Below, piece after piece: positions 4,572 to 62,831 of a DNA stretch of 64,000 nucleotides. A program made the position numbers and the translations under genes. How positions within the stretch are numbered: position 1 is the stretch's first letter; every line of letters begins with the position of its first letter. The notes below the pieces were generated by a model. That model saw only the letters and a program-made list of their open reading frames with translations. It did no database searches and had not been told where the DNA came from. Source of the stretch: Owenia fusiformis (taxonomy: Eukaryota); the NCBI GenBank assembly GCA_903813345.2, contig CAIIXF020000001.1:12648001-12712000 (forward strand). Direction: 5' to 3'.

Positions 4572-4766
4572 TTTCGGACAACTGGGTTTCGGACAACTGG
4601 GTTTCGGAGAACTGGGTTTCGGAAAAATGGGTTTCGGAGAACTGGGTTTCGGGAAAATGGGTTTCGGAGAACTGGGTTTCGGACAACTGGGTTTCGGAGA
4701 ACTGGGTTTCGGACAACTGGGTTTCGGACAACTGGGTTTCGGACAACTGGGTTTCGGACAACTGGG
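4572..4766 (-). repeat. 15-bp tandem repeat x13, right TIR of the Mutator/Foldback-like element
   Basis: TTTCGGACAACTGGG units, reverse complement of the 45-194 array. Confidence 0.95.
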
Positions 4767-17837: not shown

Positions 17838-20800
17838 TTACAATTCTGTTGTAGGGTAAGAATGGACGGAGGGGACATCAATATTTACACCACCTGGCAC
17901 AGCATCATAGGGCTCTATGGCCCTCTCTGTACAGTCCCTGAGAGTTTCACTATGTTCATATGCACTACTTGGACTGTCTAATATAGTCCGATGTAGAAAG
18001 TTCATCTTCTCTTGCTGTGAACTTAAAGTTTGCATTTTTGCTGCACGTTTCAGATATTTCTGTTTCAATTTTTGTTTCTCTGAGTGTGATATTTCCTCTT
18101 TGAGTTCAATTTCTTGGATCTGTTCACTGTTGTTATTTGTACTGCTTTTTGTATGATGGTCATCCCACAGTTTCTTAGGGTGGAATGTTTTTTCAATGGT
18201 TTCGTTAGATTGCATTGATGATATGGATGAGACATTTGTGGTAGCTGCTGTATCCCTGGGAGATGGAGTCTTAGCCCTCACTCTGTCCCCAGTCCTGGCT
18301 CTGTAGGGATTCGGTGAGTTAGGAGGGTGGGGCTGATTAGGGCTAGGTATGGGAGGAGGTGGTTCTGGGGTAGATTTAATAGCCTTCACAAAGTCTACCA
18401 CAGTGCTTTGAAGTTCTTCAAGTTTTCTTGGACTACTGTCTGGTGTTTCAGGCAAGTGACGTCTCCTAGAAGCTTTAACAGGGGTCTTATCAAGTTCATG
18501 GACAGTAGCATATGTGTGTACTTCTGCAAAGGAAGTGTTTGGTGAATTCTCCTTTGATCTCATTCTCCTGTGTCTACTTCTAGGGGATCTAATAGGAGAT
18601 CCTAGTTGTGTCTCTTCTTCAGTAGTGAACTTTAAGATATCATTTCCTGGCTCTTTCACATCCTTAAGTTCTATAACCTCCGTACTACCCACTGTCTTCG
18701 CTTTCATTTTCTTTCCTTTTTCAATCAATGAATACACATCTTTCTTTCCTTTTGCTATTGCTTTTGCAAAAGTACCATGTTGCTTACTGAGACTATTCTC
18801 TAATTCACTCATATCGGAATCTTCGGTGCTAGATAAGTCTGGTGTACTTTTTGATTTCTTTATTTTATTTGGCACTTTTTCTATACTTATATTCGGCAAG
18901 TCAATTAAATCTTCATCTGAAATCTCTCCTGGCATATGGACCAAGTTTGATGTACTTTTACTCAAATATTGTTTGGTTACAGGATCAAGTTCCTCTAGTA
19001 TTGTGATTTCCTCAAGAGGAGACTGACCACGGTCATCTTCATCTGGGGGTAATGAGAGAGTAATAGATGGTGCTTTTGACACTTTAACAACTTGGACCCG
19101 TTTCAGGTCTGAGTCACTGGAAGCACGTTCTGAGGATTGGGCAGTTAAATTCGCTAATGATGGATTACGTATGTCAGGGTTACTGCTAAAGTTTCTCGCA
19201 GAGCTAATAATGGACAATTCATGTGCGCTGTAGACTTTCATGTTTTCTGGTATGCCCGTTGATAAACATGGCCTAAGAGGTATTTTTTCACGTACAAGTT
19301 TTTTCACTGCAGATTTCAGTGGAAGGTTCATGTTTGCTATAACAAAACTTTTCCTAGTGTATTTCTGGGTTATACACACCTGTAGATCAACTGTCTTACT
19401 CGCTACAATCTCAGGAGTAATATCTTTATATTCTAATGGCTTTGAGAATTTAAACATGGATGGTTTAAAAATCGTCTGTATTGCAAATTCAGGCAGATTG
19501 TCTGTAGATTTTGGTGAATCCACCTTTACTTGAGGGGGTTCTGGCTTTTCAATTTTCACTTCATCAGTTTTGCGTTTTGTTACCCTTTTCTTGTCAGGAA
19601 GAAGATAGCCTTTCACATACACTGATTGTATCATTGATGTATCAGCTGGAAAACATAAATATACAGAACATGACAAGTCATAATAAAAAGTCATATGATA
19701 CAAGTCATAATAACTCTAGCATCAATGTTACAAATCTCTATTTTACATATTTTTTCCCAGTGTTTCTCTAAGGATTATACCCTATTGATATGAATGGAAT
19801 ACAACTTTGACAAAATGAATAAGTAGGGCTATATCCTTTCCAATCACTGATTAGCAAAAGAGAAATCACGCCCAGTGATCGGAAGAAATGAATGGAGGGG
19901 GAGTAGCTGATTTTCCATTCAACTTTCTCTTAAAAAAACAAATCTTCCAGATTTGTTGAATTTTCTAGCGAAAATCAGCTACTCCCCCCTCCGTTCATTT
20001 CTTCCGATAATGGAATAAACAGAACTGAGAATTAATTGATTTTTTACTCACCAGGAGGTAGAAGTATATCAGATAGCTGCCATACTCTTACTTTTAGACT
20101 AGATTTACGAGAATTGTACTCAAATGATAACTGCAAGAATCCCATGACTGAAAAATGCAATAAAATAACATAATAACACTACGTGTATTAGGGTTTATAA
20201 CATAAGAAACTGATCAAGTGTGGAAATTATGACAAACATTGTTTAACTTTTCAGAGAAGCAAAGTTCATTCACTTTTGTGATATTTGCATATACGTAAAT
20301 GGCACCCTTCTGCACAAGACAATGTTATTCAAAATTTCAATTAAACATTTGTAAGGCCAGATACAAGTATATTTGTTCAAATAAGTGGCTTACTTGTTTC
20401 TTTTTTCTCTTTTGGTTTCTGCCATGCTTTCTCTGGCATTTTTTCTGTTGCACATTTATCAGCCTCCTGCTTGCTTTCATCTTTGGGCTCATTTTCATTG
20501 TTATTACCAGGTGGTTTACTGTGCTCAGTAGCGTTGTCAACATGTTGTAGTTTGTTCCAGTTTTTCTCCTCCACCTCAAGACTGTCCTCTTTAGCTTGTT
20601 TAACAGTGGTCTTAATGAGATCCTTTACTCCTGAAAAACATGTACATGTAGTTTATCAAGACCTTTTTGAATTGACCTTTTTCCATATGGAAAATAGATG
20701 GCATCATGGGTATCGATGGGGCTATGGTAGCGCTAGAATACATGTAAATGTATTGCCAGAGTCACTTAATTTTTTGATTTAAGAAGTAATTCCATTTGGA

Positions 20801-23609: not shown

Positions 23610-26600
23610 ATGAATCGTAAACGATCTGATGAAGTTAATAACAAGGCTCTTGAAGAAAGACTGAGATATGCTGTTACAAATGATGATCTCCAGACAGTTA
23701 AACGTTTATTGAAGGGTGGTGTTGCTACTACATCTCAATATTGGGTAACAAATACCTTGTCTGTTTTTTTCAAAATTGAAAAATTTGGCAAGATCTTAGT
23801 TTCACAAATTACCCGGGAATTTATTCTAGTCTGTTGCAACTCCATCATTGATTCATTAGTTGTACTGCTGGGGTTTCTTGAACCTTTCACATTTGTTGTA
23901 TATGTCTTCTTCCGATGGCTTCACACGACACTTCATAATTTTGGCAAACATGAGGATAATGTGCAAAACTTTCTGATGTTTTGCAGAGGATATAGGGAGG
24001 GAGCCGCAATATTGTGTTGTCATCCATATAGGTACATGTAATTGTCGTACAAAGGAAAGCCTGCATTGAGTGTCCGAGAATATTACCTACATGGACGGCA
24101 TTGCCTTCCTGTACTCTTATCTGAGAATCTATGTCACCAGAAGTGGTGACTGGTGACATACATGCATTGGCGTCAGAAGGGGGAGGGCGTTGGGGGCGAC
24201 CGCCCCACCCCCTTTCCCTGATTTTTTAGATTTCAAACCTAGCCTAGGTACTATAGCTAATTACAGTTTCTCATGAACCCATACAGTATGTAAATGCTTT
24301 GAAGAATAAGTGCAAAATGTATATTTTAGTAAAAGTTTTTTAGTCAAAGTCAAGTTAGTTTTCTTGGGAATATTGAGCTGAGATATGTTCAGAATGAACC
24401 AGAGAGGGTCTAATTTTGAAAATTTTCTGAGAGAACGCCCTCCGACCCCCCTAGATCGCGCTTCGCGTGCGGTGCGCTTCACGCATGACCCATCCATACC
24501 CATGCAAAAGTCGCCCCCTCCCTTTGTAAATCCTTCTGACGCCCCTGTACATGTATTGTTACTTATCTTGCCCTTTATGTATATGATATGATAGGTTTGA
24601 GAGCCTTTAAAAAGGGAATCCCCGTAAAGACATCAGGATCTGATGCTGCAAAACCTGGATGTACCAATAGATGGCGGAATTTTGACAGTTAAAATAAGTT
24701 AAGGCCAGTTAACATGCAAAAATTGCTATTAAAAATGAAAATTTCCTTGTTCTGCTGATAAACCCATCGAGGCCATGCAATAAGGGATTCAGCTTCATAG
24801 AAATAATTTTGAAATACCCAGGAATTTATTGAGGTAGGTCATTTAAGTGTGAAAAGTGTGGGGAATTCTTCCATATTGTTATCATAGGGACAACCTAAGC
24901 TATAGGGACGCTCTCAGGACTATAGTCCTGGCACAGGATAAATTGTTACAGTCTCCAATGTTTTTTGTGGCTGGTGTTTGGCAGTCGGCATTTGGCATAT
25001 GAAACAAATGGTAGGTGGTGACATTTTGAATATTAATGCCTTGTTTTTATGTCTCTGCTTTTTATTTCTCTCGCATACTGTAGTTACGTTTGTAATGACC
25101 TTCCATAGCAAGTCACTACTACTGTCTCAGCTGTAGTGGCTAGCCTTTATGGCTCAGGGGTAGAGCATCTGACTCTGAGAGCGGAAGGTCCTGGGTTCGA
25201 TTCCCCCGTACGGGGCATTGAATTTAGCACATTCTCTTTCGAGTCTAGTATCTGGCTCGGTACACTACAGCCCCCCAACGATCGTGCCCAAGGGTCGATA
25301 CACATTCAATTTGCCTGCTGCTGATGTGAGTCAAATGAACCCCATAATATATAGGCAACACATATTTTATTTGAAATCTTACAAAAGGATGTACAGGTAT
25401 CTTTAAACTCCAAGCATATTAAGTAAAGTGCTCAAAAGAGATATTGTGCATGGGAATATAAAAGTTAATGTTTACATAATAAACCTTCTTTCATCCAAAC
25501 TTGTATGTAAGGAATAATTCAAGGAGTTAGCGGCCAAAAGTGATGATCATTAATTTGTATATTCTAAAATGCTTTAATTTTTTATATAGAATGTTTCTTT
25601 TGCACCATGTGAGCCCCATAATGGTGAAATTTTTAATACACACAGTAGGAACATCTGATTATTTACAGTTTGATGGCAGCTTACTCCATGAAGCTGTTGG
25701 TCGCAGTAGAGAGGAGATGGTCAGACTCCTGATTCAAGGAAAGGCTAATGTTAATGCAAAGTCGAAAGTAAGTTAAACATATTTTGAACTGCCTGTTACA
25801 AAGGATTTGAATTTTTGAAGTTCTTGTTGTCAATAGGATTCCCTTTTTAAGTTATTTTTGTTCAACATCAATATAGAAAACCCCCCTATGACTCCTGGTT
25901 CAAAAGCTCGCCTATTTTCAAAGTGGCGCCCATTTTTGTCTCACGAAATTAAATTCACTTTTGGACCATTTGCTTTAAAACCTGTGTCGATAAGATTCCT
26001 GTTTTAGGTTATTTTTTTTCAACATCAATACAGAAAACTTCCTTATGACTTCTGGTTTAGAAGCTCGCCTATTTTTTCCTCGCAAAATTCACTTTTGGCC
26101 CATTACCTAGCTCTACAAATAATCTCAGGTGTTCTGCATTGTAAAAATTGTCACCGTAAAGAGTTGTTGTATGAAATAATTTTGTTACAAAAAATCGGCA
26201 AAAAGTTATATCCGTTTTTTAAGTTTAAGCCAATTTAGTTAACATTGATTTGTCCATCTGTCTCACATAATCCACTTTTGGACCATTTGCCATAAAACCT
26301 CTGTCGATAGGATTGCAGTTTTAAGTTATTTTTGTTCAACATCAATACAGAAAACTCCCTTATGACTCCTGATTCAAAAGCTTGCCTATTTCCATAATGG
26401 CTACCACTTTTGTCTTGCGGAATTCACTTGTGGCCCATTTCCTAGGTTTACAAATAGTTTCAGGTATCCTGCATTGTAAAAAGGGTAGTGTATGAAATAA
26501 TTTTGTTACAAAATATCGGCAAAAATTACATCCAACTGCCATTTTAGCCATCATTCTCTTTTGAGCTACACCCATGGTACTGTTTATTTTTTTAGAGAGA

Positions 26601-29600
26601 GTATTAATGAAGGAATTTCATTTTGTTTTTCTAGGATGGTAGAACTGCCCTACATGTTGCTTGCAGAATTGGTAATGAAGCCATTGTGGACCAGTTGATT
26701 AAAGGGGGCGCTGACATCAATGCCAAGTCAAAGGTATGCTGTTTTTTAATTGAAACATGTTCTGTATAAAGTGTCGAATCGTGATGTTATTATTGGACAA
26801 AATTAAATCCCCCGAATGCAGGCATCCAGATATATCATCCATCTTCCCCTTTTATAAGCTGGTTTGGATAGGGAAGAAAAAAGGAACAGAGTGGATAGTG
26901 TTTGGAGACCTGCTTTCAGTGAATGTCGCACAAATAATTTAAGCTTATATTTCTGATTGAGTTAAATAGTTGCTCACTTGTCCTGATTTAAATTGGGAGG
27001 AATCCAGATTTTTAGTGCTAACTCCAATTTTTTTTCATATAACCCCCCGATTTTTCATAAAACCTACTGATTTTCTCCCAATTTGTTTTTCAAGAGAAAG
27101 CCCATGGTCTTAATCAAACTAAAAGTCATTCCCTGTGACTTTATTCCACAGTTTGTATATACAAAAACGGTTAGCAAATTGGTGGGCTATATTTGTCTGA
27201 GGCTTTTGAACATTATATCTTTCATAATATACTATAAGTTGTAAAAGATGGCTCAAAAGATATACTGTTTTTTTAATTCAAAATCAGGGACATACAACAT
27301 GTTCATATTTTTGATGAAATCCAAATACTGTACATTCATGTTCTTTATTACACGAGGCATACATAGGATATGTTTATATTATTTAATTGGGTGGTTGAGA
27401 GGTCAGAAGCATTACTTAACTACAGTAGCTGGTAATATCACAAGTACGACTGGCAGCTTTCCTTGTTCAAAATTTAAATTTAAGAATCTGAAAGGCTAGT
27501 TTGTCATAGTGCAAAACATAGGCCAAGGGTAAAGTAATAGTAAGCCATATATAGAAGAGACAGGTGAACAACTCTGACTTGGACTACTTGTTAAGATGGA
27601 GATTTCAACAATATTTAGTGTATTATTTTCAAAAAGCCATGGGGAGTTGATAGAAAATTGATAGTTTGTAGCTCTTACCTAAGATTGAAACTCAGTCAGA
27701 TGATATTGAGTGAATAATGCTGTCTAAAAGAGAGAATTTCTGAAAACCTGCAATTGCCTGGCAAGTTCATTAGTAAACAAGTGATCTGATTGGTCACTGC
27801 TGACCTCCCTGACCTCCAACAGTGACAATCAGTTTCAGCTTGCCAGGCAATTGCAGATATCCATAGTTGTTGTTTTATATGCAGTATTATATGCAGTTTT
27901 TAGATAAAGATTTGAAAAAAATAATGATATAAGTTTGAAAAACACTTTGAAGAAGATTTTGCAGAGATTTGGGAATACAATTTGATACCAGTAAGGAGAA
28001 CTAGTGCCAAGACTAAAAAAAATTGAAAAATTTTCAATCTTACTTGTGGACCTGTCTCTTCTATATTCAGCTTACTATTACTTTCCCCTTGGCCTATGGT
28101 GCAAAATGTGCATAGTAACAAAATGTCACCCTCCAGAAGATATAAAGCATTGCTATTTTGCAATAATCTTTTAACAAGAGTATGAGGTATTGTAATATTG
28201 AAAGAGAAGTGTAGTTTAGACCTAAATCAAGATGGCCATAGTCTTAGATTAAGTGTTATCCATTTACACCCAGGAGGAGCATATAGTCAGAACATACTGC
28301 TGTTAATTGAACTTCAATATATGTTATCCTTCAAGTGTGTTATTCTCTTCAGGCTCTTCTATCTTTGTTACAAACACATTACTCTCTCCACACAGTTTCC
28401 CTCCAACACGGATTAGCATTTTCCTCAGATGTTTGAAGTTTGACTTAAAGACTAAGTCCTCGCTACCAGCTATTCCAAGCCATTCCTCCTCGCCAACTAT
28501 TGAGCCATCTGACTGGGGAAGACCAATTGTCAACACTGTAGCACCACTTTCTCTCAGAAGCTCGGCGAATTGAAGAGTTTGGCTTGCCTTTCCTGTCACA
28601 ATAACAAAGACACTTATTTTCAAAAAGAACAAATTCAGGCTCTCTAGTACAATTCAACATGCAGAATCTTATGTGTTGAATTGTGTTGAAAGTGTTTATG
28701 GTATTATAGAAAGAATTTAAAAAGTCCTTCTTACCACTTGGGACAGTCTTTCCATCTGTCAACACAATTGCAACATTTGACACACCTGGTCGGTCACCAT
28801 TTTCGGGTGAGAAATATTCTGATTCCACTTTTTTAAGGGCAGTAAATGTATTTGTTTTACATCCATTTGGGGTCAGACTCATTGTTTCAATTTTATCCAA
28901 TAATTGGCTACTGTTATCTGCCCCATCCTGTAAATAAGCCACGTGTTGGTATCCTTGATTAAATGTTAGTGCCCCCACTAGGATACCATCCTGTGTGTTT
29001 TTATCAATGTTAAACGCCCTGACAGTCTCCGTCATGAAGGTACGAATATGTGTCTTGTCTGTATCTGCGACTGAACATGAGGTATCCACAGAGAAGACAA
29101 TATCAAGTGGTTTATCGCACTCTATTCTTGTACCTATGAATGGAGAAGACAATAAGAAGTGGTTTACTGTACTTTTACTTAATTTGGCGCTACTTGATTT
29201 GGGGGATTTGCTGTTTTGACCTCTTGATGGCTACTTCATTTGGTGGACTTGCAATGTTGAAAATATTGGCGAACTTCAAAGGTTCCACTTATGAGCCCAG
29301 TTTTAATCTGTTGACTTTCATTTGACTAATAAATTGTCATTGGTTCATTCAAAGTAGTTGAAAATGGACATATTGTTGTTGTTGTACAAAAGTGACGATT
29401 TTGAACACATTTTGAAAGATATTGTTCAACCGGAACAGGTGGTAAATTTCGTTCCATGGGAATCCCCAGGAATTTTGGAATTTGGCAGTCTTATTGAACA
29501 AACTTAAACAATTTGGCACCAATTCAATACACAGAAAATACCCATCCAGCAGACTTTTTTAAAGATCAACCAAATTGTGAAAAATTTGGTTGATGTTGTT

Positions 29601-32600
29601 TATGTCTTTCCAGCGTGGCTATACTTACTAGGTACACATTTATTTTCATGGCATGATAGACCTCGACAACATTCATCATCACTGGAACATCCTCCTTCTT
29701 CAACGCAACCTACAGAATAATATAATAAATTATTACATTGTATAGCCATAATAGACCGATGGCGGTCATATCGTGTACCATGCATACGGTTATATCAGAC
29801 AACCGCGGGTACGCGAAGCATTGACACGGTTATACTCAGCTGCAGTAAGAATCTTAAATCGTAGATTCAAAAATGTTTCAAAAAATAAATTGTGGGACGT
29901 CCATCCTTTCAATTGCTTATTTAGAAGTCTATTTCCAAGTCTGATCGGTGGTATTCGTTGACAAGTGCATATATTTTAAGAAAAAAGGTATGGCGAAGAA
30001 GATATTAGGCCACACGTTGCACTTATAGCTCGGGAAAGGTAAAATGACTCCCAAATTTCCTCTATGGTCTTTATTGGACATTTAAATCTTGACTGAGGAC
30101 ACACGTACTTGACCAATTTTATTTCACCACCAAGAAGTGGTCATATTGTTATGGTCACTTGTTTTGTGGTATGAGTTCACTGTCTCTAACAAATGCTTAA
30201 AATGTGGTGGTAAGATTTAGGTGGTAACATTTTGTCATGTTAAAGTCTGTTTTAATCTCACCAATCTCATAATCTTACCTTACTGCCTAAAACAGTATAT
30301 TGGTTCAGAAAATAAAAAAACAATGCTTTTTCCTCACTCGAAAATGGTTTCCCTTGCTGAAAATGAATTTAATACTCAAACCGGGGCTTACATATCTTGT
30401 CAAATGAGCAAGTAAATCCTACACAACATTCAGGACTTAAGTCATCTCCACAACTTCCTTTCACCTTAGAGCAAACCTCTTCTACAGGTGATTCTAAAAT
30501 GTAAACCATGACAAATACGTTATACTTTCTCAGTTGTACAGAGGAACACTATCAAGTGAATACAAAAATAGTCTCATTTTCGATACAACTTTAAAATTAT
30601 CTGAATGATCGAGTTGATTCAGCTGACTCATGAATCCATGGATTATTTAAGGATTTAGATCCTGGACTCAGTGCTTTGTAGACTGATTACCATTCTCAAA
30701 GGTGTTGTTTCAAAATTTGCATGAGATACGTAGCATTGAGTGCTAAGTTTAAGAAATAATGCCCAAATGTGAAATTGATCAGCTTATCGGTTTCATCAGT
30801 TTCACTAGAATCTAAAAATGAATTTGAGTGCATAAGATTGTATACTTCACACTTTACACTTCCTAATATTTCATAATCAGCTATTCTAGGTGCTTATGTG
30901 GATTTAATAGATCTTAGAACAGTAAATACATATACCGGTAGTTCACATTATAGGGAAATTATCGAAATGGGAAGTTATCGAAATGATTTAGAACAAACAT
31001 AATCTGTCTTGCCTGGTAGAAGACATTCTGGTGCCTCTTGGTTCCATCCATCTTCAGTACACTCAATCTCTGAAGGCCCGGTCAGTTGGTAACCTTCATC
31101 ACATTCAAAGCTTATCGCACTGTCACACAAGTCAGCTCCTCCAACCATGGGTGAACGGGAACCATTTTCAGGTGCTGGTAGATTTGTACATTCTTTTACT
31201 GTTCAAAAGTGATGGAATATAAAAATGATTTGTTTTCTACCTATTTGCTCCCTAATATAAATATCAACATCAACATTTCTATACAGTGTGTCCCAAAAAA
31301 AGGAAACCAGCGATAGATTGCTTATTTCTCAAATATGAATAATAATAGGAAAATTTCACAGCTACCATCTGATAGGTTATGATGTCCTCCTTTGTATGAT
31401 ACCAAAGTTGTCTATTTTCCTTCACGGATGATTGAGTTATAAGGGATTTAAGTGACCATGTCAGAAATGAGTTTGTACCACTTTCAGCCAAGTCGATTTC
31501 ACCATCATAACAAAGTGATAAGTAACAACAAACATCAGGATATCACTCTTTTACTCATTTATTCCAATCAAAATTACACATATCATATTTAACACCCCTT
31601 TTAAATACCAATGTCCATTCAAAGTTGTTTTAACCCCAGTGTCATCATCAGGGATGCAGTACTTGCGATGAGATCAAGGGCAGACATTTGCATTGAAAGG
31701 AATGGGGGTCATGTGAAATTTTCCTATTATTATTCATATTTGAGAAATAATCAATCTATTGCTGGTTTCCTTTTTTTTGGGACACACTGTACATGTACAT
31801 GGAAATATGTTTTGAAATATCACATTGATCCTTTTTATTGATGGATGAATCAACTTGTTATGCAATCAGCCTAAAAAGTAAGAGATTTTCAACAACCTAT
31901 GGTCCAGCAGGTGGGATATAGATATCTTAATGGGACATACGAGTATATAATACAGTATGTTAATTGTTAAACCTGTGTTATTATAGCGTTATGTTATAAT
32001 GTATAGCCAAATTGTATTGTAGACACACCGGAATAGCCTGACAACGGTAAAGTCAGATACTGTTGTCACAAATGGCGGACACAACCGTCGCTTCAACTGT
32101 TTAATCACTTGGTTCTCATTTAATGGGACTTTATCGTCGCTAATTCTGTGCATGTATTAAGCTCTTGTGATGATGTTGCATATGAAATCCCAATTTCGAT
32201 CAAATTGGGTCGTGAATCACCATAATATACTAGTAACGTCTTCGATATCATCAATGAAAACTGAATATAAATTTGAGTAAGACAACGGCATATGGTAATT
32301 ACAGCGTCCATTGTCCCATATCTCATTTTGATCGGTTAAATGAAAGATTTTGTTTTGATGGTAGAACATTATTAACTGTACAATGAGTATTAAGACACTT
32401 TGATTGATTGTTGTTCCAAAGGAATTTAGTCTAGGTGCTCTATTAAACATACAGTTCATGAAAATCTAATTGAAGCGACAGTTATGTCCGCCATTTGTGA
32501 CAACGGTATCTGACTTTACCGCTGTCAGGCTATTCCAGTGTGATAGAGTAAACTATGTTATTTATAATTATATCAAGGATTTGATACCTTTACATGTAGG

Positions 32601-35600
32601 TACAGATGGGGAAACAGTTCCCCCTGGCATGCATGTCACAAAATTCTGGCTTACTCCATCAGAAGTGTCTAATGTATAGCATGAATCAGGCCTACAAAAA
32701 TAAGTAAAAATGCATTTGTAGGTCAAGGTCACCAGAGAGGTTAAATGTCAAATATGCAGGCATGTCAACTCTCCTGCAATTTGCATGCTGGTAACTCCTT
32801 TAAAGAATTAGAATTGATGGAAGAATAATGACAGTTACTCTGAACATTAATGAATATACTTAATGAAATAATACTATTCCATATACAGGACACTGTATGT
32901 CACATATTCAGCAATGAATACAGTGTCCAAACATAATACAAAATTACTGTTGTTTTTCAATTTTGGTATTTTTTCTGAGCTCCACCTTGTCGCATCACCA
33001 GTTACCATGGTAACAAAAATAATAGAATAATGATGTCAAAGAACAATGAAATCGTCATGGTGTGTATGGCATTATTTTTGCTTCTTTATTCATTAAATTC
33101 AAATATATTCGATATATGAAACATTTATATTCGCTAAATCATTTTTCCATTCGGTAAAAACGTTTATATGTTTGTTTCAGCAAATTAAGTTTTCAAAATA
33201 GGCAATCACTTAATACAATGTGCATTAAATTACATATTTCATTCGTTAAATGACATTTTTTGCGTAAATATTATGGTATTCCTTAAGAGTAACACATTAT
33301 ATGCACAATATTGAATTTCTATTTGAACCCTACCGAAATAAGTTTGCCTATATTTACCAAATGGTTTATTTTTCTATGACATAGTTAATGCATTTTACCG
33401 AAAGCTAATTTGCTATTTACCGAATGCAATAAAGTAATATTCGATAACTTGCGTTGTTGTTCGATATTTTGTCACGTGACTTCGAGATTTGCAAAATGGC
33501 CGCGTAGCTATTCTAGGTGTCACTCCGATAAATAGCACTTCCGGGTAGGACTTCCGGTTAGTGTTTTTTAATACTTTAAAAACGAAGCCATGCCAACTTC
33601 AATGGTGTGTATAGTAGGTTTAAGTGTATGCAATGTGGCCATTTGAGGTATGTATGTAAAGCTGAGGCCAAGTACTTTCTAAATGTGCCATTTTAAGAAG
33701 CAAGAATTCGCAAGAATATAGTCCCGTAAACTGGAACTACTTTATTCGTTAATTTTCATCGGTGAAGCAGGGATTTTACCTGAAAATGAGTCCCTATGTT
33801 GGCGTGGTGATATATAAAAATCGAGACGCAAACCCTATGTTAAATATAGTGTCAAGATGAAGGTTGTGTATAGGGGAACGCAGAAATATAGTCATTGTAT
33901 GGGCTAGTTCGTTCGAAAATGGCGATATGTACCCCAGAACTTGAATTTTGTGATTTTTTTCAATATTTTTCAATGATTTACAGGAGTGACACCTCTACAT
34001 CGTACAAATATATCACGTGACTGAAAGTCTCGTAAATTATCGAAAAATAACGAAATTTATCGAATGTGGCATTCGGTATTTACCAAATATAAATAATTTA
34101 AGTACCGAATGTACAAATAATTAATTGAATTATATGTGCGTTAAGGAAAACAAATTGATTCGCTGCATCACACAAATACATGTATAAATATCAAATGTGA
34201 ATGTCAATACAAAGAACAAGTGAAACTATTTAGCGAATATAAATTGTATAGATTATTACATTTGATAAAATAAAAAAACATTCGATAGATTGGGTAAAGG
34301 TTTGGTAAATTGTTTGTTTTATTTGGTATTTATGGAATATTAATGTACCGAATAAAGAAGCAGTTTAAACACCATAGGTGTGATCCTATATATTTGGGTT
34401 ATATTATGTATTCTGTTACACAAAAAAAAACTGGCGTGACTTCAAATTTTCCAGCGAATGCGTGACAAAAACGCAAATTGCGGGACAGTTGGACGGCCTG
34501 GAAGCTGTTTAATTTATGACAAGAGTATGATCATATATGTTTTTATTATTCTGTTGATAGAAATTCAGTGTTAATTTTAGCATTATTGGTGATGAAGGTG
34601 CAGAGTCATTGTCAAATTCATCAAAAGGTCAAGTTGTTTGGAATTATTTTACTTTGAAAGTTTTACAATTTCAACAATTTTTAGAGTTCAATATTTATCT
34701 TTTACAGAAAACATGAAACAATTCATTTCCATTCAAATGTTGATTCTGTAGTTGCTAAATTAAAATCAAATTAACACTATTATATTCAATTTTCATTCTT
34801 TTGACCTGGGTTAATTTGGCTTGAATTTGTGATTCATATGTGCATAATAGATTTGATAAACAATAGTATATCTAGTTACACTGATGTTCCCTGACATTAA
34901 GTGCATTTCTGGTCAGTGAGGCACTGGGTTCCGACCTAGTTTTACGAAAAGTTCTGCATCTTATGTTCCAACAGTCACACCAAAATTGTTGGAAATATGG
35001 ATGTAATTGTTTTCTATGGTTAATCTGTCTAATCTATGTAACTTACTCAAAATAAACTTTTTCTCCAACATTAAACCGTCCTTTTTTATTTTCTGCACTT
35101 CGTTGGATGTTATATCCACAATGGTCTTCTGCTTGTGGGTACTCACAGGTTACATCTATTAAAGAGATGCTGAATTAGTTCATCAGGAATATGTTATGTT
35201 ACATAATCGTTAAGCCAATGGTACACATGATTTAGTTAAATTGTCTTACGTGCTATTGTTATTTTAGATGTAGTCAAGTTTATCCCCTCCCAAATATCTA
35301 TTCATCAAATCTGACTAGAGAGATAATGGGGGAAGGAATATATACAGTATGCAGAAGGTTGATTCAAGACTACATATTTGTACGGTTAAGTTATGTTAAG
35401 TTATGTTGTATTATACCTGCACATGCTCCATTCTCACAGACACCAGTGCAGCAATCTTCATCTTTCACACACACCTGGGTAATCTGGCCACAACCTGAAG
35501 AACATTTCTATTATTTTACTTTTAAAGGTTTTTTTAAATTCCCATTTACCCTATTTGAGTGTAGGCCACCGTAATATCGACATTTCTGAATATAGGTCAC

Positions 35601-38600
35601 TGTAATACTGACCTGTTTAAATATAGGCCACTGTAATAGTGACATGTTTGAGCTGTGATCATTTATATTACATGCTCCAATTTGCCACAATTGAGACCAA
35701 GGCAGAACTGGATTCATATGGCAAGATACCCTTACATATTCAGCTCTTGTAATGGCATTACATTTGCAGTTATTGCCTTCTTTAGGTCAGCAATTGTCTG
35801 AGGACTGTTTTGGAATACAATTTGTCTTTCAAAAACCCCCACAAAATGAAATCAGGTGGATTCAAGTGACAGTGAGTACCAAAACAATCCAGACAATTAT
35901 TGCTGACCTAAAGAAGGCAATCACTGCTAACGTAATGCCATTATAAGAGCTGAATATGTAAAGGTATCTTGCCATGACATATTTTTAGTATATTTTAATG
36001 TGATATTGACATATCTAACTGAGAATAGCTCACTCTGATGCTTCATGTGTTAATATAATTCACTATAATAATACTGACATGTTTGAGTTGAGTCACACTG
36101 AAGGAGATAACTGATGGTTGCATCTTCAGGGTCTTGGGCACAGCATCCCTGTCCTGTCTTATGTCGTCCATTACATCCTTCACCCAGCCTTGCACATGCA
36201 AAATCTATGAACATATAATTTTATGTTGACACATATGTATTAAAGGTGATTTATCTCATCTAAATTTCATGGAATATTTTGAATGCCCCTCATATTTTAT
36301 CATTGACTGTGATATGTCATGTAATAAGGTATGTCCTTTCAAAGACAAAAAAGAGGTTGTATCTTACTATAACGCTCCTTATTGGAAGTATACTGTACCT
36401 TCTTCTGGGGTGCATTTCTGCATGAAGCATTTCAAGCCCTTGCAGCATTGCTCAGTTGCCCTACAGAACTCATCCATGAGAACACATTCAGGGAGAGGAT
36501 TGGGTGTAGCCTTCACTCTTACCTTACCAGCTAGCAATAATAGCAAATACAGCTGTGTGATCATTCTTGTTTTCACCTTTAGGGTGAGTCTTGTCAAGGG
36601 ATCCAATCATAAAGGGCATTGTACAAAAGACCATACAGTATTCCCCTTCCCATTTTTGTTTGAATAATACATGCAAGCCATGAGGAAAGGTAGGGGGCAC
36701 CAGTCTTTTAAGATATCATCAGGATGTGTAGTTTAATGGTTGCATTGATATGTATTCAGTCATATGGTTCACCATTTGTCATTTTCAATATCAATTTATT
36801 TTGTCACCACCATAAGTGGTGAAGTATTGCTATTATTATCCCCAACTTTTTGCGATGGTGTCTTTTGGCGTTCAGCAACTGTAACAAATGCCGGGTGGTG
36901 ACATTTTTTAATGCCTTATATTTAAGTATAATCTATTTTGTTTGATAATTTTATCTTAGTTGACTTACTCTTTCTCTCAACTATAGAACTATATTCTTGG
37001 CACACCTTTTTACGTGCATTTGTGCATGGGTTGAGTCTGGTGGGTGTTTGACTATATCTCTTCCTGTATGTTTTTGGGATGGCAAACTGAAGACATGTAT
37101 TTTGTAGCCAGCCTTTAAAAGTACATCTGTAGTATATGCACTCTTCTTCAGGATCTGTTGCAAACTTCCCCACATTTTGTGCTCTACTTCCACCACATTC
37201 TAGTAAAAATGATTGTGATTAGATGAGAAACTTCAATGAAATCGACTCTCCCCATAATAGGTTTTTTACATCCTCCCCAAATATAACTGATCATGTGGGG
37301 ATATACATTCGTCCCTAAATAAAGTACACTAAAAATTAAAGACTTGAACACCAGAAATTCTCAAAATCTCAGATTTTCACAGAAAATTACACAACAGGTG
37401 CCCATTTTGGATTTTGTGAGGCAGAATCAGAAAAACGATATAATATTTGCTTAAAGTGCCTTTCATCCAAGTATAATAAAATTAAGAGATGTGAAAGTGA
37501 AAATTTCTATTTTCTCCCCAATACAATCATGGTCCTTGAGGTTTAAGCTAAAAAAAACAAATCATATTTGACTATGGGTATATTATATTAACTAATACAT
37601 GTACATAAAGTACTTTTTCATATTCATTGGAAAGATAAATAAGATCAGTGAGTTTGTGGAAAAATGCTCTCATTTCAAAGGCTTTCTAATCAAATTTTCA
37701 CATCACATCCAAAAAGATCTGGGGGTCATTAACAGAACTTTCATAAAGTTACGAATTCGCAAATCAATTGTTAATTTTACGAATTTGGTAAATATGCATT
37801 AACTGAACTTTCATTAAGTTATGAACGATTTCGCAAAGTTATGAAAAAATGATGTCCCATATGTCTTCGTTTGTAACTTTAACTCAGGGCTCAGACCCCT
37901 TCATAACTTTGCGAATGCCGCATATTTCTCATTCATTTCTTTATGTAAGGTATACAGTTTGACAAAAACAAATAATTTTTTATATGCATGCAAAGTTTCA
38001 AGCTGAAATATCCACTAATTCTTACATGATTAGCAGATATGTTCCTGAGCTGGGAATCTTTGAGATCGCGGAGACAGGTTTATTATTATTTATTAAGCAC
38101 AGCGCGCAATGATATTAAATGACGGCATGTTTTTATTTGTGGTAAATAATGATGTAAGATGATGTCACAAGTCCAAATTTGTTTAAGAATGATAAAAGTT
38201 ACGAATGACTTGATGATTCTTTAAGTAGTTTATTCTATTTATTAAGCTGCAGACATTTAATATGGAATTCTTTGTAAAATAATAAGCATATAACATGTAT
38301 AATTCTATCTGTTTTTGAAATTGTTCTTGCAAACATTTAAACAGTTTTATACATTTTTATTCAACAATCAAATTTTGATTACCTATTGAAGGGATGTCAG
38401 CATTTGCCTTATGTAATCCATAAGAAAATATTACAATGATTGATGACCAAACTATGACTTCCATCTTGAAAAACTAGCTGCTGTATAATGTATATGTATT
38501 GGTTCCTGCCAGACTTGCGTAAATGTGTTATTTCAAAACTTTTTTTAAATCAATAATTCACCAGATAATTTATCTAATGAATGGATTTGGACTGTCAGTG

Positions 38601-41600
38601 ATTATGTAGTGTTTAATGAACCATTATTAATTTTGTCACTGGTAGACTATTATTTTGATAACACATGTAATATCCGAGAGAAAAAGCAACACATTCTGCA
38701 TAATGTGGAGGTTTTATGTGATATTTGATATTTTTGTTGATAGGTTACAACTGACCACTTGAGGTTAATAACAAATTCACGTGACTGCATCTTGATTAGT
38801 TCAAGTTTTTTTAATATGATCAAAATTGAATACATTGCTCTAAAGAGAACATGTCTCTTTGCAAATGTATTAGTAGTTGGGCAATGTTTACAATGTTTTG
38901 TAGACTGTGAGACTGATATGAGCAAAAGAGGCAAGTGAACATTTTTCATGAATTTAAAAAAAGACAAGGGATGTATTTGTTTGTTTGTTTGTTTGTTTGT
39001 TTGTTTGTTTGTTTTCAGCATTTTTATCTTTTGTGCTTTTAGGACTATCGTACATGCCTCCATGTGGCTGCCTGGAAGAACAAGGTTAACATTGTCAAGA
39101 AGTTAGTGGATGCAGGTGCTAAAGTCAATGTTAAAGATGATGTAAGTTATTTAATGTTAACAAGTATTGTCTGTAACAAAGGTAGCACATTTGCTTGCAT
39201 CAATTCCCCACCTTATATAAGATACAATTAATATTAGAACAATGTTTTGACAGCTTTACACTTTCAACATTTGAAATTTCCCACTAATTCTTTGTCTTTT
39301 GGATTATTTTTTGTCTCAAATCTCCTCCTGAGAGGACTAAGATATGAGTAGGTAGTTTAACTGTTTCACCGCCAGGTGGCTCATTCGAATCAGATAGCAT
39401 GGCAAGTATAGTAGAAAGTTCCCTTTAACTTATATATCAGGCCCGAACCCCCCCCCCCCCCCCGGCCAAAAATTCTTTCAAAATCATGCAGTTTTTCACC
39501 ACTTTGAGCACTTTTCAAGTGATTTTAGCCATATTTGGGCCAAAATTGTCAAATGTGAAACCCCCCTGGAAATTTTTGAAAACTGAACCCCCCTTGGCAA
39601 ATCCTGGCTACGGGCCTGTATATTTATATGTTTAGAGGTTCAATATTCATATCACCTTAATGTATCAAATCGTTATGCAAATTAAAATATGTCCAGTAAA
39701 AGAAAATGTTACCTGTCTATTACAAGAAAAGGTATTTCACTTTTTGTGATTTTTAGCTCACATGGTGAGCTTTTGCAATCACTCACTTGTCCGTCTGTCT
39801 GTCCGTCCGTCTGTCTGTCCGTCTGTCTGTCCGTCTGTCAACAATAGTGGCACGTTTTAAAACCTCTGTCGATAGGATTCCTGTTTTAAGTTATTTCTGT
39901 TCAACATCAATACAGAAAACTCCTCTATGACTCCTGGTTCAAAAGCTCGCCTATTTTCAAAATGGCCGCCACTTTTGTCTCGCGAAATTCACTTTTGACC
40001 CATTTGTTTTAAAACCTCTGTCCATAGAATTCCTGTTTTAAGTTATTTCTGTTCAACATCAATACAGAAAACTCCCCTATGACTCCTGGTTCAAAAGCTC
40101 GCCTATTTTCAAAATGGCCGTCACTTTTGTCTCGCCAAATTCACTTTTGACCCATTTCCTAGCTTTACAAATAATTTCAGGTGTCCTACACTGTAAAAAT
40201 CCATGTCAATGTAAAGGGTAGATATATGTAATAATATTGTTACAAAAAATCAGCGAAAAATTATATCCATTTTTTTATTTTCAGCCATTTTAGTTAACAT
40301 TGATTTGTCTATCTGACTCGCGAAATCCAATTTCCGTCAATAACAGTGGCACGTTTTAAAACCTCTGTCGATAGGATTCCTGTTTTAAGTTATTTCTGTT
40401 CAACATCAATACAGAAAACTCCCCTATGACTCCTGGTTCAAAAGCTCGCCTATTTTCAAAATGGCCGCCATTTTTGTCTCGCGAAATTCACTTTTGACCC
40501 ATTTCCTAGCTTTACAAATAATTTCAAGTGTCCTACATTGTAGAAATCCATGTCAATGTAAAGAGTAGATGTATGAAATAATTTTGTTACGAAAAATCAG
40601 CGAAAAATTGTATCCATTTTTTTATTTTCAGCTATTTTAGTTAACATTGATTTGTTCATCTGTTTCGCAAAATCCACTTTTGGACCATTTACCTTAAACC
40701 CTCTGTCGATAGGATTTCCGTTTTAAGTTAATTTTGTTCAACATCAATACAAAAAACTCTCCTATGACTCTTGTTTCAAAAGCTCGCCTATTTTCAAAAT
40801 GGTCGCCATTCTTGTTCCGCGAAATTCACTTTTTGCCCATTTCCTAGCTTTACAAATAATTCCAGCTGTCCTGCATTGTAAAAAACCGTGTCACTGTAAA
40901 GAGTAGTTGTATGAAATAATTTTGTTACAAAAAATCGGCAAAATATTATATCTGTTTTTTTATTTTCAGCCATTTTAGTTAACATTGATTTGTCCATCTG
41001 TCTCGCGAAATCCTCTTTTGAACCATTTGCTTAAAACCTCTGTCGATAGGATTCCAGTTTCACATTATTTTTGTTCAACATCAATACAAAAAAACTCCCC
41101 TATGACTCCTGGTTCAAAAGCTTGCCTGATTTCAAAATGGTCACCATTTTTGTCTCGCGAAATTCAATTTTGACCTATTTCCTAGCTTTACATATAATTT
41201 CAGGTGTCTTGCATTGCAAAAAGCCATGTCACTGTAAAGAGTAGTTGTATGAAATAATTTTGTTCCAAATAATTGGCAAAAAATTATATCCGTTTTTTTT
41301 CTCAGCCATTTTACTTAACATAGATTTGTCCATCTGTCTCTCAGTCAGTCCAAAATAGTGGCAAGTGGCTTGAAATAATTTCAATCAGCAAAAAATTATA
41401 TCCTGTTTTTCTGTCACCATGTGAGCCCAGTACCCACGGTACTAATTTTATATAACATGGTGTCTATGGGGAATCTCCCCGAACTAGATGTCAGATTTTT
41501 AAAAAATTTCAAAGTTGATAAACAATTTTAAAACCATATTTCTAGACATACTTTTACATGTAGATTTCAAGTTAGACTTTTGACTGAATTTTGAATATTT

Positions 41601-44600
41601 AATGATGTAAATTAAGATTTTTTCTACTCGCATCTAATCAATTGAAACACATTTTACTACTGTATGTTTATATTCTTGTTTGTTTTCTAGGATCTGTGGA
41701 TGCCTCTACATTGGGCAGCAAATCTAAATGCTATGGAAAGTGCTGAATACCTCATTAAAAATGGTGCCATAATCAATGCAGCTGATAAGGTAGTCACTCT
41801 TCCTCGGGTTTTTGCGTGCGTGGAGCACAGAATGGAATAGACTTTCAGGCATAGAATTGCAGAATCTTGAATTTTGATCATTTCTCTTGAATTCTAATCA
41901 TTTCTGTAATTATGTCACCACCAAAAATTGGTGACATATTGTTATGGTCTCCATCTTTTGTGAGGGCGATCCATTTTTTTGTGAGGGCGATTGGCAGATG
42001 GCACTTGGTGGTGGTTGGCGGTTGGTGGTTGGCAATCGGCATCTGTAACGAATTCTTACAACTTCCAATAGCTTAACAAATACTGTTTAGACTGACTTCA
42101 ATTATTTTCAAAATCATCTACAAGTTTCCTGAAGTTCAAATCTGACTTAAAATTTAAGATTTGACCTTCAATGACCTTCTCAAGGTTAAAAAAGTTAAAA
42201 AAATTAAAAAAGGTCTTTTTTATACTTGCTTCAAATTGACTGATTTTTTTTCTTAAGGTCAAAAAATATTCATAACATTTTGTCATGTTAATGCCTTGTT
42301 TTATACATGCTGCAGACAAATTACTGGTAGAAATCACTCACAAATACTGTACCCCCAGTAATTTTTGCGTGCTACTATATTTCGTGCTTTTCTGAGTACC
42401 GTTAACTGAAATTTCACAAAAATTAATATAGTGTACATGGCAATACACAACCCCACATTTCTTGCACTCAGATTCAAATCAAAAAGGTTTCTTGTTTACA
42501 AATATCAAATAGTACAATATTTTCTTGGAAGTATGCCTCTCGACCTAGTTGGTTGGTCCCATTCCCTGAAGGGCATACTAATTCCAATTAAGTGCAAAGC
42601 CCATGCATGCAAAAGAGTATTTAAAATTAGGTTGATATTAGAATAACAAAAATGTAACAGGAATCTCATTCGATGCCATTTGTGTGCTAGATATCTGGTT
42701 TCCTATTAAATGTTTTGTTTGACAGCTTCATATCCAGATACTTGTAACTTAATACTGAATTAACAAAATGTTGCATAGCATTATTAGAATTAAATACACA
42801 ATATCATGAGCAACTGACATAAATACATTATTGATCTTGGATACAAATTTAAAAGTGTTTATAAACTCATCTTACCAAATTTTTCACCTTTTTTAAAACA
42901 TTTTTGGTTTAACTTTCTGGCTTATTTTATTCAGTGATTCTCAGATACAGTAGTAAGTTCAGAAATATGTTTTAATGCTTTTTTATTTATACTTTTGTTA
43001 TAAATGGTCTCTTAAATTCACATTTTACATGAATGTCAACGATGTACAGGGTGGTCAAAAAAAATAGAAACCCTGCATTTTCCTTATATCTTTGTCACTT
43101 TAAAATATTACTCCTTGATATTTCACACATTTGTACATCATTCAATTTCCTACCACCCTACCATATGTCATGACCATCAGATTGATAGTCACAATTTTAC
43201 AGCACTTTGAATAACATGCTTCAGATTTGGCCATTATCGCGCTGAAGGCAAAACAGCAGTTGTCAATGACCCAAATGCATTTCTCAGCAGGTATGGCCTG
43301 AATGACATGAATGATCTCACTTTTGAGGTTTAAAATTGTCCTGATGTCATTCTCATATACTCTATCTCTGCTGTATCCCCACAGGTAGGGACATTTTAGA
43401 CGATGAGTACAGGTTTCCCAACAGGGCAATAATGGCCACTGGGGCATGTTCTTTAAAGTACTGACTGTAACATTGTGACTATCAAGCTGATGGTCAGGAA
43501 ATAAAGTAGGCTGGTAGCAAATTGAATGATGTACAAAAGTCCAAAATATCAGGGAGTTATTTCTTAAAATGACAAAGATATAAGGAAAATGGTATTAGGG
43601 TTTCCATTTTTTTTAACCACCCTGTATATTATCCACATAACAAATATATGTAAATATATTTTCAGCGTGGAAAGTTACCTATTCATGAAGCTGCCGCTGG
43701 AAGTCATACAGACATAATTAAATTGCTCATAAGACACGGCTCAAATGTACAGACAATATCAAAGGTATGATGATCATCAGTTAGTTTGTTGAAAGGACAC
43801 ACGTTTCTCTTAAACCAGTCATAAAAATCTAAAAATTTAACACATCGTCAATTTAATGGTCATCTTTTGAATGGTAACAGTAGACCTAGAAAGATTATGG
43901 ATTCGTGTTAAAATTAATAATAATTTTCTTAATCTTGGAGTTACTTACTTTCCCGTAGATGGAAAAAATTCAATTTTAAGCGAAAAGTTAATGGATGAGT
44001 TGATCTCTAATGTTGCAGAGGTTGAATCAGATGACACATATACTTTATTGATGGGTGATTTTAATGGGAAGGCAACCAAATTTTGTAAAGGGCAAAGCAG
44101 CCAAAATGGTAAACTTATCGATCTTTTCAGTGATGTCACAGGCATGCACATGTTAAACTCTATTAACTGTCAGGGTGAGATAACATGGTCAAGGGGAACT
44201 CAACATTCATCCATTGACTATTGCTTCGGTAACCATAATTTTATGAAGGTGTACCAATATATGATTATTGATGAAACCCACGAAGAGGCAAGTTTAGGTA
44301 GTGACCACTCTTTTATGATTATAAATGCTATACTGCCCTCTCAGTCAGGTAACCTTAAGACCAATGTTCCTCCTGATAATAAAGATGAAGATACTGTAAT
44401 TTGGAACATTAATGATAACACAGATTGGGATTGCTTCAGAAACGCCATTAATACTGAATTTAGTTCCTGGGACATTTCCAAGTGCAGTAACATTGAAGAT
44501 GCATGGTCCTCATTCAAAGAGAATATAATGAAGGCTGCTCATATAGGGGTTGGGATTAAGAGGGTACCAACAAACCATCGTTCATTTTGGGATAAAGAAA

Positions 44601-62680: not shown

Positions 62681-62831
62681 CTGAAGACAAAAAAATGATA
62701 TAATAAAAAGTCAACAATTCCCTTCACAAAGCTAGATCAATTTAAAATATAAAAATACCCTAAGTATCATGTAATAAAACATTCTTCGTTAATGAATCGT
62801 CAGTCACTGCCTTATTGATATCACATATGAA

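Follow-up and report, generated by a model that had tools for sequence, protein, structure and literature searches.

What is encoded on the minus strand of a stretch of the Owenia fusiformis genome in which short, cysteine-rich reading frames follow one another, and what might the product do? The question arose from a window of 64,000 nucleotides (nt), the whole stretch of DNA that was analysed (positions 12,648,001 to 12,712,000 of contig CAIIXF020000001.1, assembly GCA_903813345.2). A sequence-only reading had joined twelve exons between positions 28324 and 38464 of this window into one hidden antisense gene for a secreted protein with chitin-binding, knottin, Sushi and VWA modules. The window is AT-rich eukaryotic DNA, with a GC content of 32-42% in 2-kb windows. 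The twelve-exon gene is real, far beyond what chance would produce. The locus can be read as an intact nuclear gene, nested in another gene, that would encode a secreted acidic mosaic, most likely a cross-linker of extracellular matrix, and this reading as a whole is given about an even chance of being right.

The twelve exons and their host intron

The cysteine-rich stop-to-stop blocks of the minus strand form a chain that runs from 38473 to 28324. Eleven of the minus-strand open reading frame (ORF) blocks used in the original model were found again in the ORF list, and the one for the first half of Sushi 1 corresponds to the block at 35043-35174, which makes twelve. AG acceptors and GT donors were listed with their phases, and the exons were then joined by a script (Table 1). 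With the exon 4 donor placed at 36064, the joined sequence has 1914 nt and encodes 637 amino acids (aa), among them 50 cysteines, followed by one stop codon, which is the single frame of about 637 aa that had been proposed. Ten of the donors are GT and one, after exon 8, is GC. Ten of the eleven introns are in phase 1; the intron inside Sushi 1 is in phase 2.

When the translation of exon 11 was used as a query, three proteins were matched at E<=0.001 among 564 candidates, all annotated as "unnamed protein product [Owenia fusiformis]" and all encoded on one 62.2-Mb contig. These are P0001 (CAH1773091.1 in GenBank, A0A8J1UDP6 in UniProt; 632 aa, 100% identical), P0002 (507 aa, 69%) and P0003 (739 aa, 55%). 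Exon 1 was identical to residues 1-27 of P0001 by tblastn, and the joined model departs from P0001 solely in a five-residue run where exon 4 ends, as P0001 uses the donor at 36079. That donor restores a Cys codon across the junction (T/GT), split as at the junction of exons 9 and 10, and yields a "CC" junction between adjacent knottin units, as in the paralogues. The 632-aa model is taken as the better one because of the rebuilt codon and the paralogue-like junction, and 36079 is probably the right choice. The order of modules given in the sequence-only reading is borne out by the joined model and the public protein alike, and the Cys spacing of its first module (18-4-9-22-7), as well as the C-C-CC-C-C units, could be reproduced from the public protein.

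The gene is therefore not hidden, as had been claimed, but uncharacterised, since the same model is already public without a name. A literature search found no publication joining knottin, von Willebrand, Sushi and chitin-binding, one on inhibitor cystine knots as repeats in annelid extracellular matrix led to a single unrelated review, nothing relevant came up on the proteome of Owenia tubes or glands, and those passages of the Owenia genome paper that were matched by the search do not touch this gene. As far as these searches reach, the protein is public yet unnamed and undescribed in the literature.

The surroundings of the gene were seen most clearly in RNA-seq data from three runs of the same species (X13, X14 and X15; 6-12% of each was read, tissue and stage unspecified). 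A joint from 26731 to 39041, which spans 12309 nt and has GT..AG borders with the cut at +2, was found in all three runs, with 8 to 11 reads each, and in all of these reads the first mate lay on the minus strand. Ankyrin repeats are encoded on the plus strand at both sides of this 12.3-kb intron and a SOCS box follows at 47761-48096. The joint, the flanking ankyrin ORFs and the SOCS box together place the gene on the opposite strand within an intron of an ankyrin/SOCS-box gene. The word antisense used in the first description holds for the strand, and beyond being nested in an intron of the host gene nothing more is meant by it. The plus-strand host gene is ASB-like, with pieces at 25531-25773, 26640-26733, 39043-39231 and the SOCS-box piece already given, and its introns are very long.

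Table 1. Exons of the nested gene and the enclosing intron (positions in the window).
Feature	Position	Strand	Description
Exon 1	38383..38464	-	Start codon; signal-peptide-like N-terminus; 27 aa + 1 base; donor gtaatc, phase 1
Exon 2	36969..37199	-	Six-Cys N-module, Cys gaps 18-4-9-22-7; CBM14-like candidate
Exon 3	36399..36530	-	Inhibitor cystine knot (ICK)-like unit 1, Cys gaps 6-5-0-4-4
Exon 4	36079..36204 (end of public model; donor of first model 36064)	-	ICK-like unit 2, Cys gaps 6-9-0-14-5
Exon 5	35417..35494	-	ICK-like unit 3, Cys gaps 6-5-0-3-4; abuts unit 2 without linker, split Cys codon
Exon 6	35047..35155	-	Sushi 1, first half; donor gtaagt, phase 2
Exon 7	32588..32691	-	Sushi 1, second half, without the usual Trp
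Exon 8	31013..31198	-	Sushi 2; next intron GC-AG, donor gcaaga; junction the same in P0001
Exon 9	30392..30493	-	ICK-like unit 4, Cys gaps 6-7-0-4-5; last Cys codon split T/GT
Exon 10	29629..29709	-	ICK-like unit 5, Cys gaps 5-5-0-4-4; motif CCRGLxC
Exon 11	28735..29133	-	VWA, N-terminal two thirds; metal-site motif D-x-S-x-S with later T and D
Exon 12	28324..28592	-	VWA, C-terminal third; acidic tail; TAA stop at 28324-28326
Host-gene intron	26734..39042	+	RNA-seq joint; encloses the whole nested gene

Modules of the predicted protein

By inspection, the N-terminus has a hydrophobic core and an A-x-A site, in keeping with the signal peptide that had been proposed there. The mature chain would have an isoelectric point of about 4.7, and it carries three N-glycosylation sequons. 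No second hydrophobic stretch was found in the protein, so it would not be membrane-bound. The product is best regarded as a secreted, intact multi-module protein with no membrane anchor, its secretion being predicted from the N-terminus.

The most clear-cut of the modules is the C-terminal VWA domain, which had been recognized from the start. Residues 421-592 of P0001 match the Pfam VWA family (PF00092) with 86 bits, relative to a cut-off of 23.8, and an E-value of 4.8e-24; exon 11 alone reaches 76.9 bits (E 2.8e-21), and the domain is followed by a tail of about 40 residues. The metal ion-dependent adhesion site (MIDAS) of VWA domains is formed by a D-x-S-x-S motif, then a Thr and an Asp. 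An alignment of five proteins of the family showed D427-T-S429-C-S431, T504/T506 and D537 to be invariant, from which the MIDAS is predicted to be complete. Against solved sequences, the VWA exon gave 32 matches at E<=0.001, headed by collagen VI alpha-3 (3e-23) and the mussel proximal thread matrix protein 1 (PTMP1; 5.4e-11), the rest being integrin I domains, von Willebrand factor and collagen VI. Because the nearest solved sequences are those of collagen VI alpha-3 and the byssal thread protein PTMP1, the domain is classed, by its sequence, as a VWA of matrix type.

Sushi, or CCP, domains have four cysteines and a conserved Trp. Two such domains had been claimed, and it is the second for which Pfam gives a match of its own (PF00084, E 1.2e-10, 42 bits; cut-off 20.7); the match covers the whole profile, positions 1-56 of 56, and the Trp is present. 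For Sushi 1, encoded by exons 6 and 7, Pfam gave nothing in P0001, where a single Sushi stretch was reported, and the assignment comes from an alignment with a Pfam-validated Sushi domain of P0003 (residues 185-252). In addition to lacking the Trp, Sushi 1 has one Cys displaced relative to the paralogues. Each Sushi domain of P0001 contains five cysteines.

Five units with the C-C-CC-C-C framework are found in the chain, with units 1-3 before the pair of Sushi domains and units 4-5 between Sushi 2 and the VWA. Four of the five gave sub-threshold Pfam matches: unit 1 to UPF0506 (0.004), EB (0.013), Conotoxin_I2 (0.13) and Toxin_12 (0.89), unit 4 to Toxin_7 (0.019) and unit 5 to Toxin_12 (0.016), with Dickkopf_N and Toxin_23 also among the families matched; unit 2 had no Pfam match. 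A profile of units 4-5, built from three paralogues and run against the sequences of the PDB, gave 23 distinct matches at E<=10, the best of which was the double-ICK toxin Xt3a of a remipede (E 9.3e-5, over two stretches). This was the one match of the 23 below E 0.001. The remaining 22 are, by the names given by their depositors, venom peptides of 31-82 aa, one of 34 aa being labelled "KvAP CHANNEL". AlphaFold modelled units 4-5 with low confidence (predicted local distance difference test, pLDDT, 54.5). Four of the five Foldseek matches of this model at E<=10 were ICK knottins, with Xt3a at the top and the trypsin inhibitor EETI-II and a conotoxin among them, but the E-values of 1.5 to 9.3 are not significant. 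The ESM Atlas gave no usable feature match for these units, and its structure rows led to Dickkopf_N at a template modelling (TM) score of about 0.5, under the bar. The ICK type that had been proposed is accepted for unit 5 by its sequence and for units 1-4 by their cysteine framework.

Such resemblances raise the question of whether the knottins themselves are the active parts, as protease inhibitors, antimicrobials or channel blockers, with the rest of the protein serving to display or anchor them. In favour of this, the profile of units 4-5 shows likeness to ICK toxins of spiders and of a remipede, the structural neighbours just named, although not significant, include an inhibitor and a conotoxin, and five units per chain would provide multivalency. 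On the other hand, all of the Pfam toxin-family matches lie under the curated cut-offs, and one member of the family, P0008, keeps the N-module and the VWA without any knottin, so the knottins are not the core of the family. Owenia is not known as venomous. Taken together, active knottins are considered quite improbable. The sequence around the units has neither dibasic sites nor any other evident signal for processing, and at two junctions there is no linker at all; the absence of flanking dibasic sites also argues that the units are not released as peptides. A precursor of released toxins was rejected because of this lack of processing sites and the intact multi-module nature of the protein.

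The N-module, transcription and the surrounding DNA

The observations that weigh against an intact, chitin-linked matrix gene come from two directions, the N-module and the RNA. The first module had been called chitin-binding type 2, which is kept here as a candidate label; weak profile and language-model leads point to it, and neither Pfam, nor solved sequences, nor fold comparison provided a match. Pfam CBM_14 (PF01607) was not matched at E<=1 in exon 2 or in P0001-P0004, and no solved sequence was matched at E<=10. The structural model of the module has a pLDDT of 56.4; with it, Foldseek found no match at E<=0.001, and VIA-align found one chain of 48161 at Z>=2, an unrelated one (Z 2.2).

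The leads begin with the ESM-Atlas, in which the top feature matches of the N-module were all CBM_14, at 0.84-0.85, which counts as no more than a lead; in its structure rows, CBM14 proteins reached TM 0.42-0.49, short of the bar. A profile of three N-module sequences was also run against 1.84 billion representatives at E<=0.001 and gave seven matches: P0002, P0001, P0004 and P0008 of Owenia, one beetle protein and two repeat proteins that are clearly spurious and have similar E-values, a further point on the negative side. The beetle protein has eight CBM_14 repeats and was matched in eight stretches at E 7.8e-5. The CBM14 framework has six cysteines and an aromatic hairpin between the second and the fourth; in the beetle repeats the cysteine gaps are 12-5-9-12-8, as compared with the 18-4-9-22-7 of the N-module. 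An hhalign comparison of N-modules with the beetle repeats gave a probability of 45% and a P of 2e-4 over 30 columns, covering a C-x-Y-Y-x-C...W...C hairpin. Seven of the eight beetle repeats outscored all 2000 Cys-preserving shuffles, but the beetle protein had been preselected by score as the best of 1.84 billion, so that this test is biased. On balance, the N-module is a diverged relative of CBM14 with a likelihood that we would put a little over one half, judging from these comparisons.

The second set of points concerns transcription. The spliced reads that the sequence-only reading had named as its check were looked for in the three partial runs, and the exons proved almost uncovered. 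In the bin 28501-29000, made up almost wholly of exons 11 and 12, the depth was 0 in X13 and X14 and about 1 in X15. Across 36001-37500, which holds exons 2-4, the depth was at most about 1, with the first mate mostly on the minus strand, the orientation of host pre-mRNA. The 11 junctions of the nested gene were matched by none of the 15 joints listed, 88 weaker joints lying outside the listing. Furthermore, neither AATAAA nor ATTAAA occurs within 727 nt 3' of the stop codon.

These results could also be read as those of a silent or decaying paralogue, predicted by annotation but unused. The near-zero depth on the exons in all three runs and the missing canonical poly(A) signal fit that explanation, as do the distance of about 1500 accession numbers that separates P0001 from the cluster of P0002, P0004 and P0003, and the condition of Sushi 1, where the Trp is missing and one Cys has shifted in comparison with the paralogues. 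Yet the frame is open over 12 exons with good splice sites, the 50 cysteines are kept and even in number, and the MIDAS and the columns invariant in the family are intact. Moreover, the RNA-seq evidence covers only 6-12% of three runs of unspecified tissue. Silence or decay is thus regarded as improbable, and the reading as an intact gene is retained.

Most of the RNA-seq depth in the window falls on repeats. The regions 31500-34500 and 39000-41500 have a high RNA-seq depth on both strands and a very high word depth in a DNA-like run; X1 is taken to look like DNA because contiguous pieces from it cross introns. Both consist of repeats or transposon fragments that lie in introns, among them the 2.4-kb intron between the two halves of Sushi 1, and tetranucleotide repeats occur at 38965-39020 and 39779-39842. 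A number of odd joints were also seen, one from 26568 to 41415 that skips about 14.8 kb, and others that run backward from 41300 to 26536, from 40164 to 39861 and from 40498 to 40347, many of them with unknown letters between the joined parts. The joints near 26536-26568, 41300-41415 and 39861-40498 could be due to repeat copies at both places or to back-splicing of the host gene.

Apparently in another intron of the host gene, a retrotransposon of the long interspersed nuclear element (LINE) type is found on the plus strand at 43871-46993, with a frame of 1041 aa that matches a reverse transcriptase (RVT_1, 1.8e-30) and an endonuclease (Exo_endo_phos_2) domain. Farther away, exons of an elongation factor 1-alpha-like gene lie on the minus strand at 56747-62710, in which Pfam recognizes GTP_EFTU, domain 2 and the C-terminal domain. 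On the other side of the nested gene, a minus-strand frame at 17841-19715 is open for 625 aa, with no Pfam family, a raised GC content of 0.38 and a strong AT skew of -0.19, and could represent either a gene without introns or a mobile element; a pentapeptide-repeat ORF (Pfam Pentapeptide, 4.5e-13) is present at 4474-4857, also on the minus strand.

The Owenia family, its proposed role and related systems

The N-module and the VWA occur together in all six proteins of the family, P0001, P0002, P0003, P0004, P0008 and P0011, the last of which is partial (533 aa), and all six are from Owenia. With the profile run against 1.84 billion representatives, and with word-based searches, the N-module was not found in other species, and in the databases searched the family is restricted to Owenia. 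The nearest relative outside Owenia in the large database searched is a multi-VWA/EGF protein of Capitella, 30% identical; otherwise the word-based searches gave Sushi-only proteins. The accession numbers of P0002, P0004 and P0003 (CAH1774616, CAH1774624 and CAH1774632) lie no more than 16 apart, and P0001 is about 1500 numbers away. When P0002 and P0003 were compared with the window by tblastn, matches fell on the exons of the nested gene only (P0002 at the VWA exons with E 8e-73), so both are encoded elsewhere. The residues of the MIDAS and all of the cysteines are kept among the paralogues, apart from the Cys displaced in Sushi 1.

What differs among the members is the middle of the chain. 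Sushi domains number zero in P0002 and P0008, two, by alignment, in P0001, P0004 and P0011, and four in P0003. In P0008 (CAH1792232.1), encoded on another chromosome-sized contig, two tandem copies of the N-module are followed directly by the VWA, with neither knottins nor Sushi domains. The phase-1 introns at every module boundary fit a history in which exons for knottins and Sushi domains were shuffled into an older pair of N-module and VWA. From the sequences compared, the family probably arose from a simple pair of N-module and VWA, still seen in P0008, with the knottin and Sushi exons shuffled into a phase-1 intron, and P0008 may show the ancestral form.

By analogy with the VWA and chitin-binding proteins of mollusc shells and with the tube of the annelid Paraescarpia, the protein is proposed to be a matrix cross-linker. 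At one end, the N-module would attach to a polysaccharide or glycan, with chitin as the first candidate; at the other, the metal site of the VWA would serve to bind a protein, either a collagen-like one or a different component of the matrix. Between the two, the knottin and Sushi modules would serve as stiff, disulfide-stapled spacers that resist proteases. The tissue would be the tube lining, the chaetae or another secreted matrix.

The same parts could be arranged into a different story, in which the protein acts in the body fluid in recognition or agglutination, the CBM14-like module binding a microbial or fungal polysaccharide and the Sushi domains and the VWA recruiting partners, loosely in the manner of factor B/C2 without the protease. 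Sushi domains do stand ahead of a MIDAS-bearing VWA, and the family is lineage-specific and multi-copy with a varying number (0, 2 or 4) of Sushi domains, as is common for immune genes; the near-silence of the gene in three unstimulated RNA-seq runs would suit an inducible gene. However, the Sushi domains are dispensable, as P0002 and P0008 have none, no domain of the protease, lectin or death type is present, and none of the 32 solved sequences matched by the VWA exon is factor B/C2, the top ones being collagen VI and PTMP1. A humoral role is accordingly held to be unlikely, if less so than either active knottins or a silent gene, and the matrix cross-linker is preferred.

A more specific version of the cross-linker proposal is offered tentatively, as one that has a fair distance to go before it could be called probable. 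It would have a private matrix family of Owenia formed when a phase-1 intron of an ancestral "CBM14-like + VWA" gene took up exons for ICK knottins and Sushi domains, with the knottins becoming load-bearing spacers in a linker between chitin and protein in the tube or chaetae. Should this be true, ICK knottins, otherwise known as free peptides of venom or defence, would here serve as structural repeats and not as toxins, and matrix genes of this sort could be a genomic reservoir for free ICK peptides. The annelid branch to which Owenia belongs, the sister group of all other annelids, would join the lophotrochozoans in which matrix proteins with VWA and chitin-binding domains build shells and vestimentiferan tubes. 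The locus would also be a clean example of phase-1 exon shuffling and of a gene nested in a host intron. Lineage-specific extracellular mosaics are common and no long-standing open question is touched; the relevance is to annelid tubes and chaetae and to the evolution of knottins.

Several known systems invite comparison. Complement factor B/C2 consists of CCP repeats, a VWA and a C-terminal serine protease. A factor-B-like complement protein was rejected, as there is no protease domain in the Owenia protein and factor B/C2 is absent from the 32 VWA-exon matches in the PDB. The double-ICK toxins, Xt3a and DkTx of a tarantula, and the single ICK venom peptides share with the Owenia protein the C-C-CC-C-C framework and the CC-x-G-L-x-C core, and the double toxins have tandem units in one chain as well; but the toxins occur as free peptides 31-82 aa long, whereas the five units of Owenia are embedded in a matrix-type protein of 632 aa without processing sites. 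The N-domains of collagen VI alpha-3 and PTMP1 are likewise MIDAS-bearing VWA domains of secreted structural proteins, although these proteins have multiple VWA domains and no knottin, Sushi or CBM14-like modules.

Closer in composition are the matrix proteins of molluscs. In PMC11291548, mollusc proteins with VWA and chitin-binding domains, some with Sushi repeats, are described as shell matrix proteins in which the VWA binds other matrix proteins, Pif/BMSP being built of an N-terminal VWA, then CBM14 and a laminin-G domain. The same paper grades degenerate modules as "CBM_14-like" and contains no mention of annelids. As described there, Pif/BMSP, including the bivalve PifCCP, resemble the Owenia protein in being secreted, in combining a VWA with a six-Cys module of the peritrophin-A type (and with Sushi/CCP in PifCCP), and in their lineage-specific expansions and domain shuffling. 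The comparison with Pif/BMSP that had been drawn from the sequence stands as an analogy. Membership in Pif/BMSP was rejected, since by described architecture the order is reversed in Owenia, with the CBM14-like module N-terminal and the VWA C-terminal, and no laminin-G match was found in the protein. The Owenia protein also differs in having no low-complexity mineral-binding region, in an N-module that falls below Pfam CBM_14 detection and in the added knottins.

Among annelids, the tube of the vestimentiferan Paraescarpia echinospica is a close parallel. In the passages of PMC8476170 that were matched, 35 tube matrix proteins are reported, enriched in VWA, ChtBD2, LamG and TSP1 domains and read as scaffolding for chitin. 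The likeness lies in VWA and ChtBD2 domains within a secreted matrix, and the difference, again by description, in LamG being the domain paired with VWA or ChtBD2 there, with no knottin or Sushi in those passages. The kind of protein, a secreted lophotrochozoan protein with VWA and chitin-binding-like modules, is already known from these systems; what Owenia adds to it is the reversed order of the modules, the knottin repeats and the annelid lineage in which they are found.

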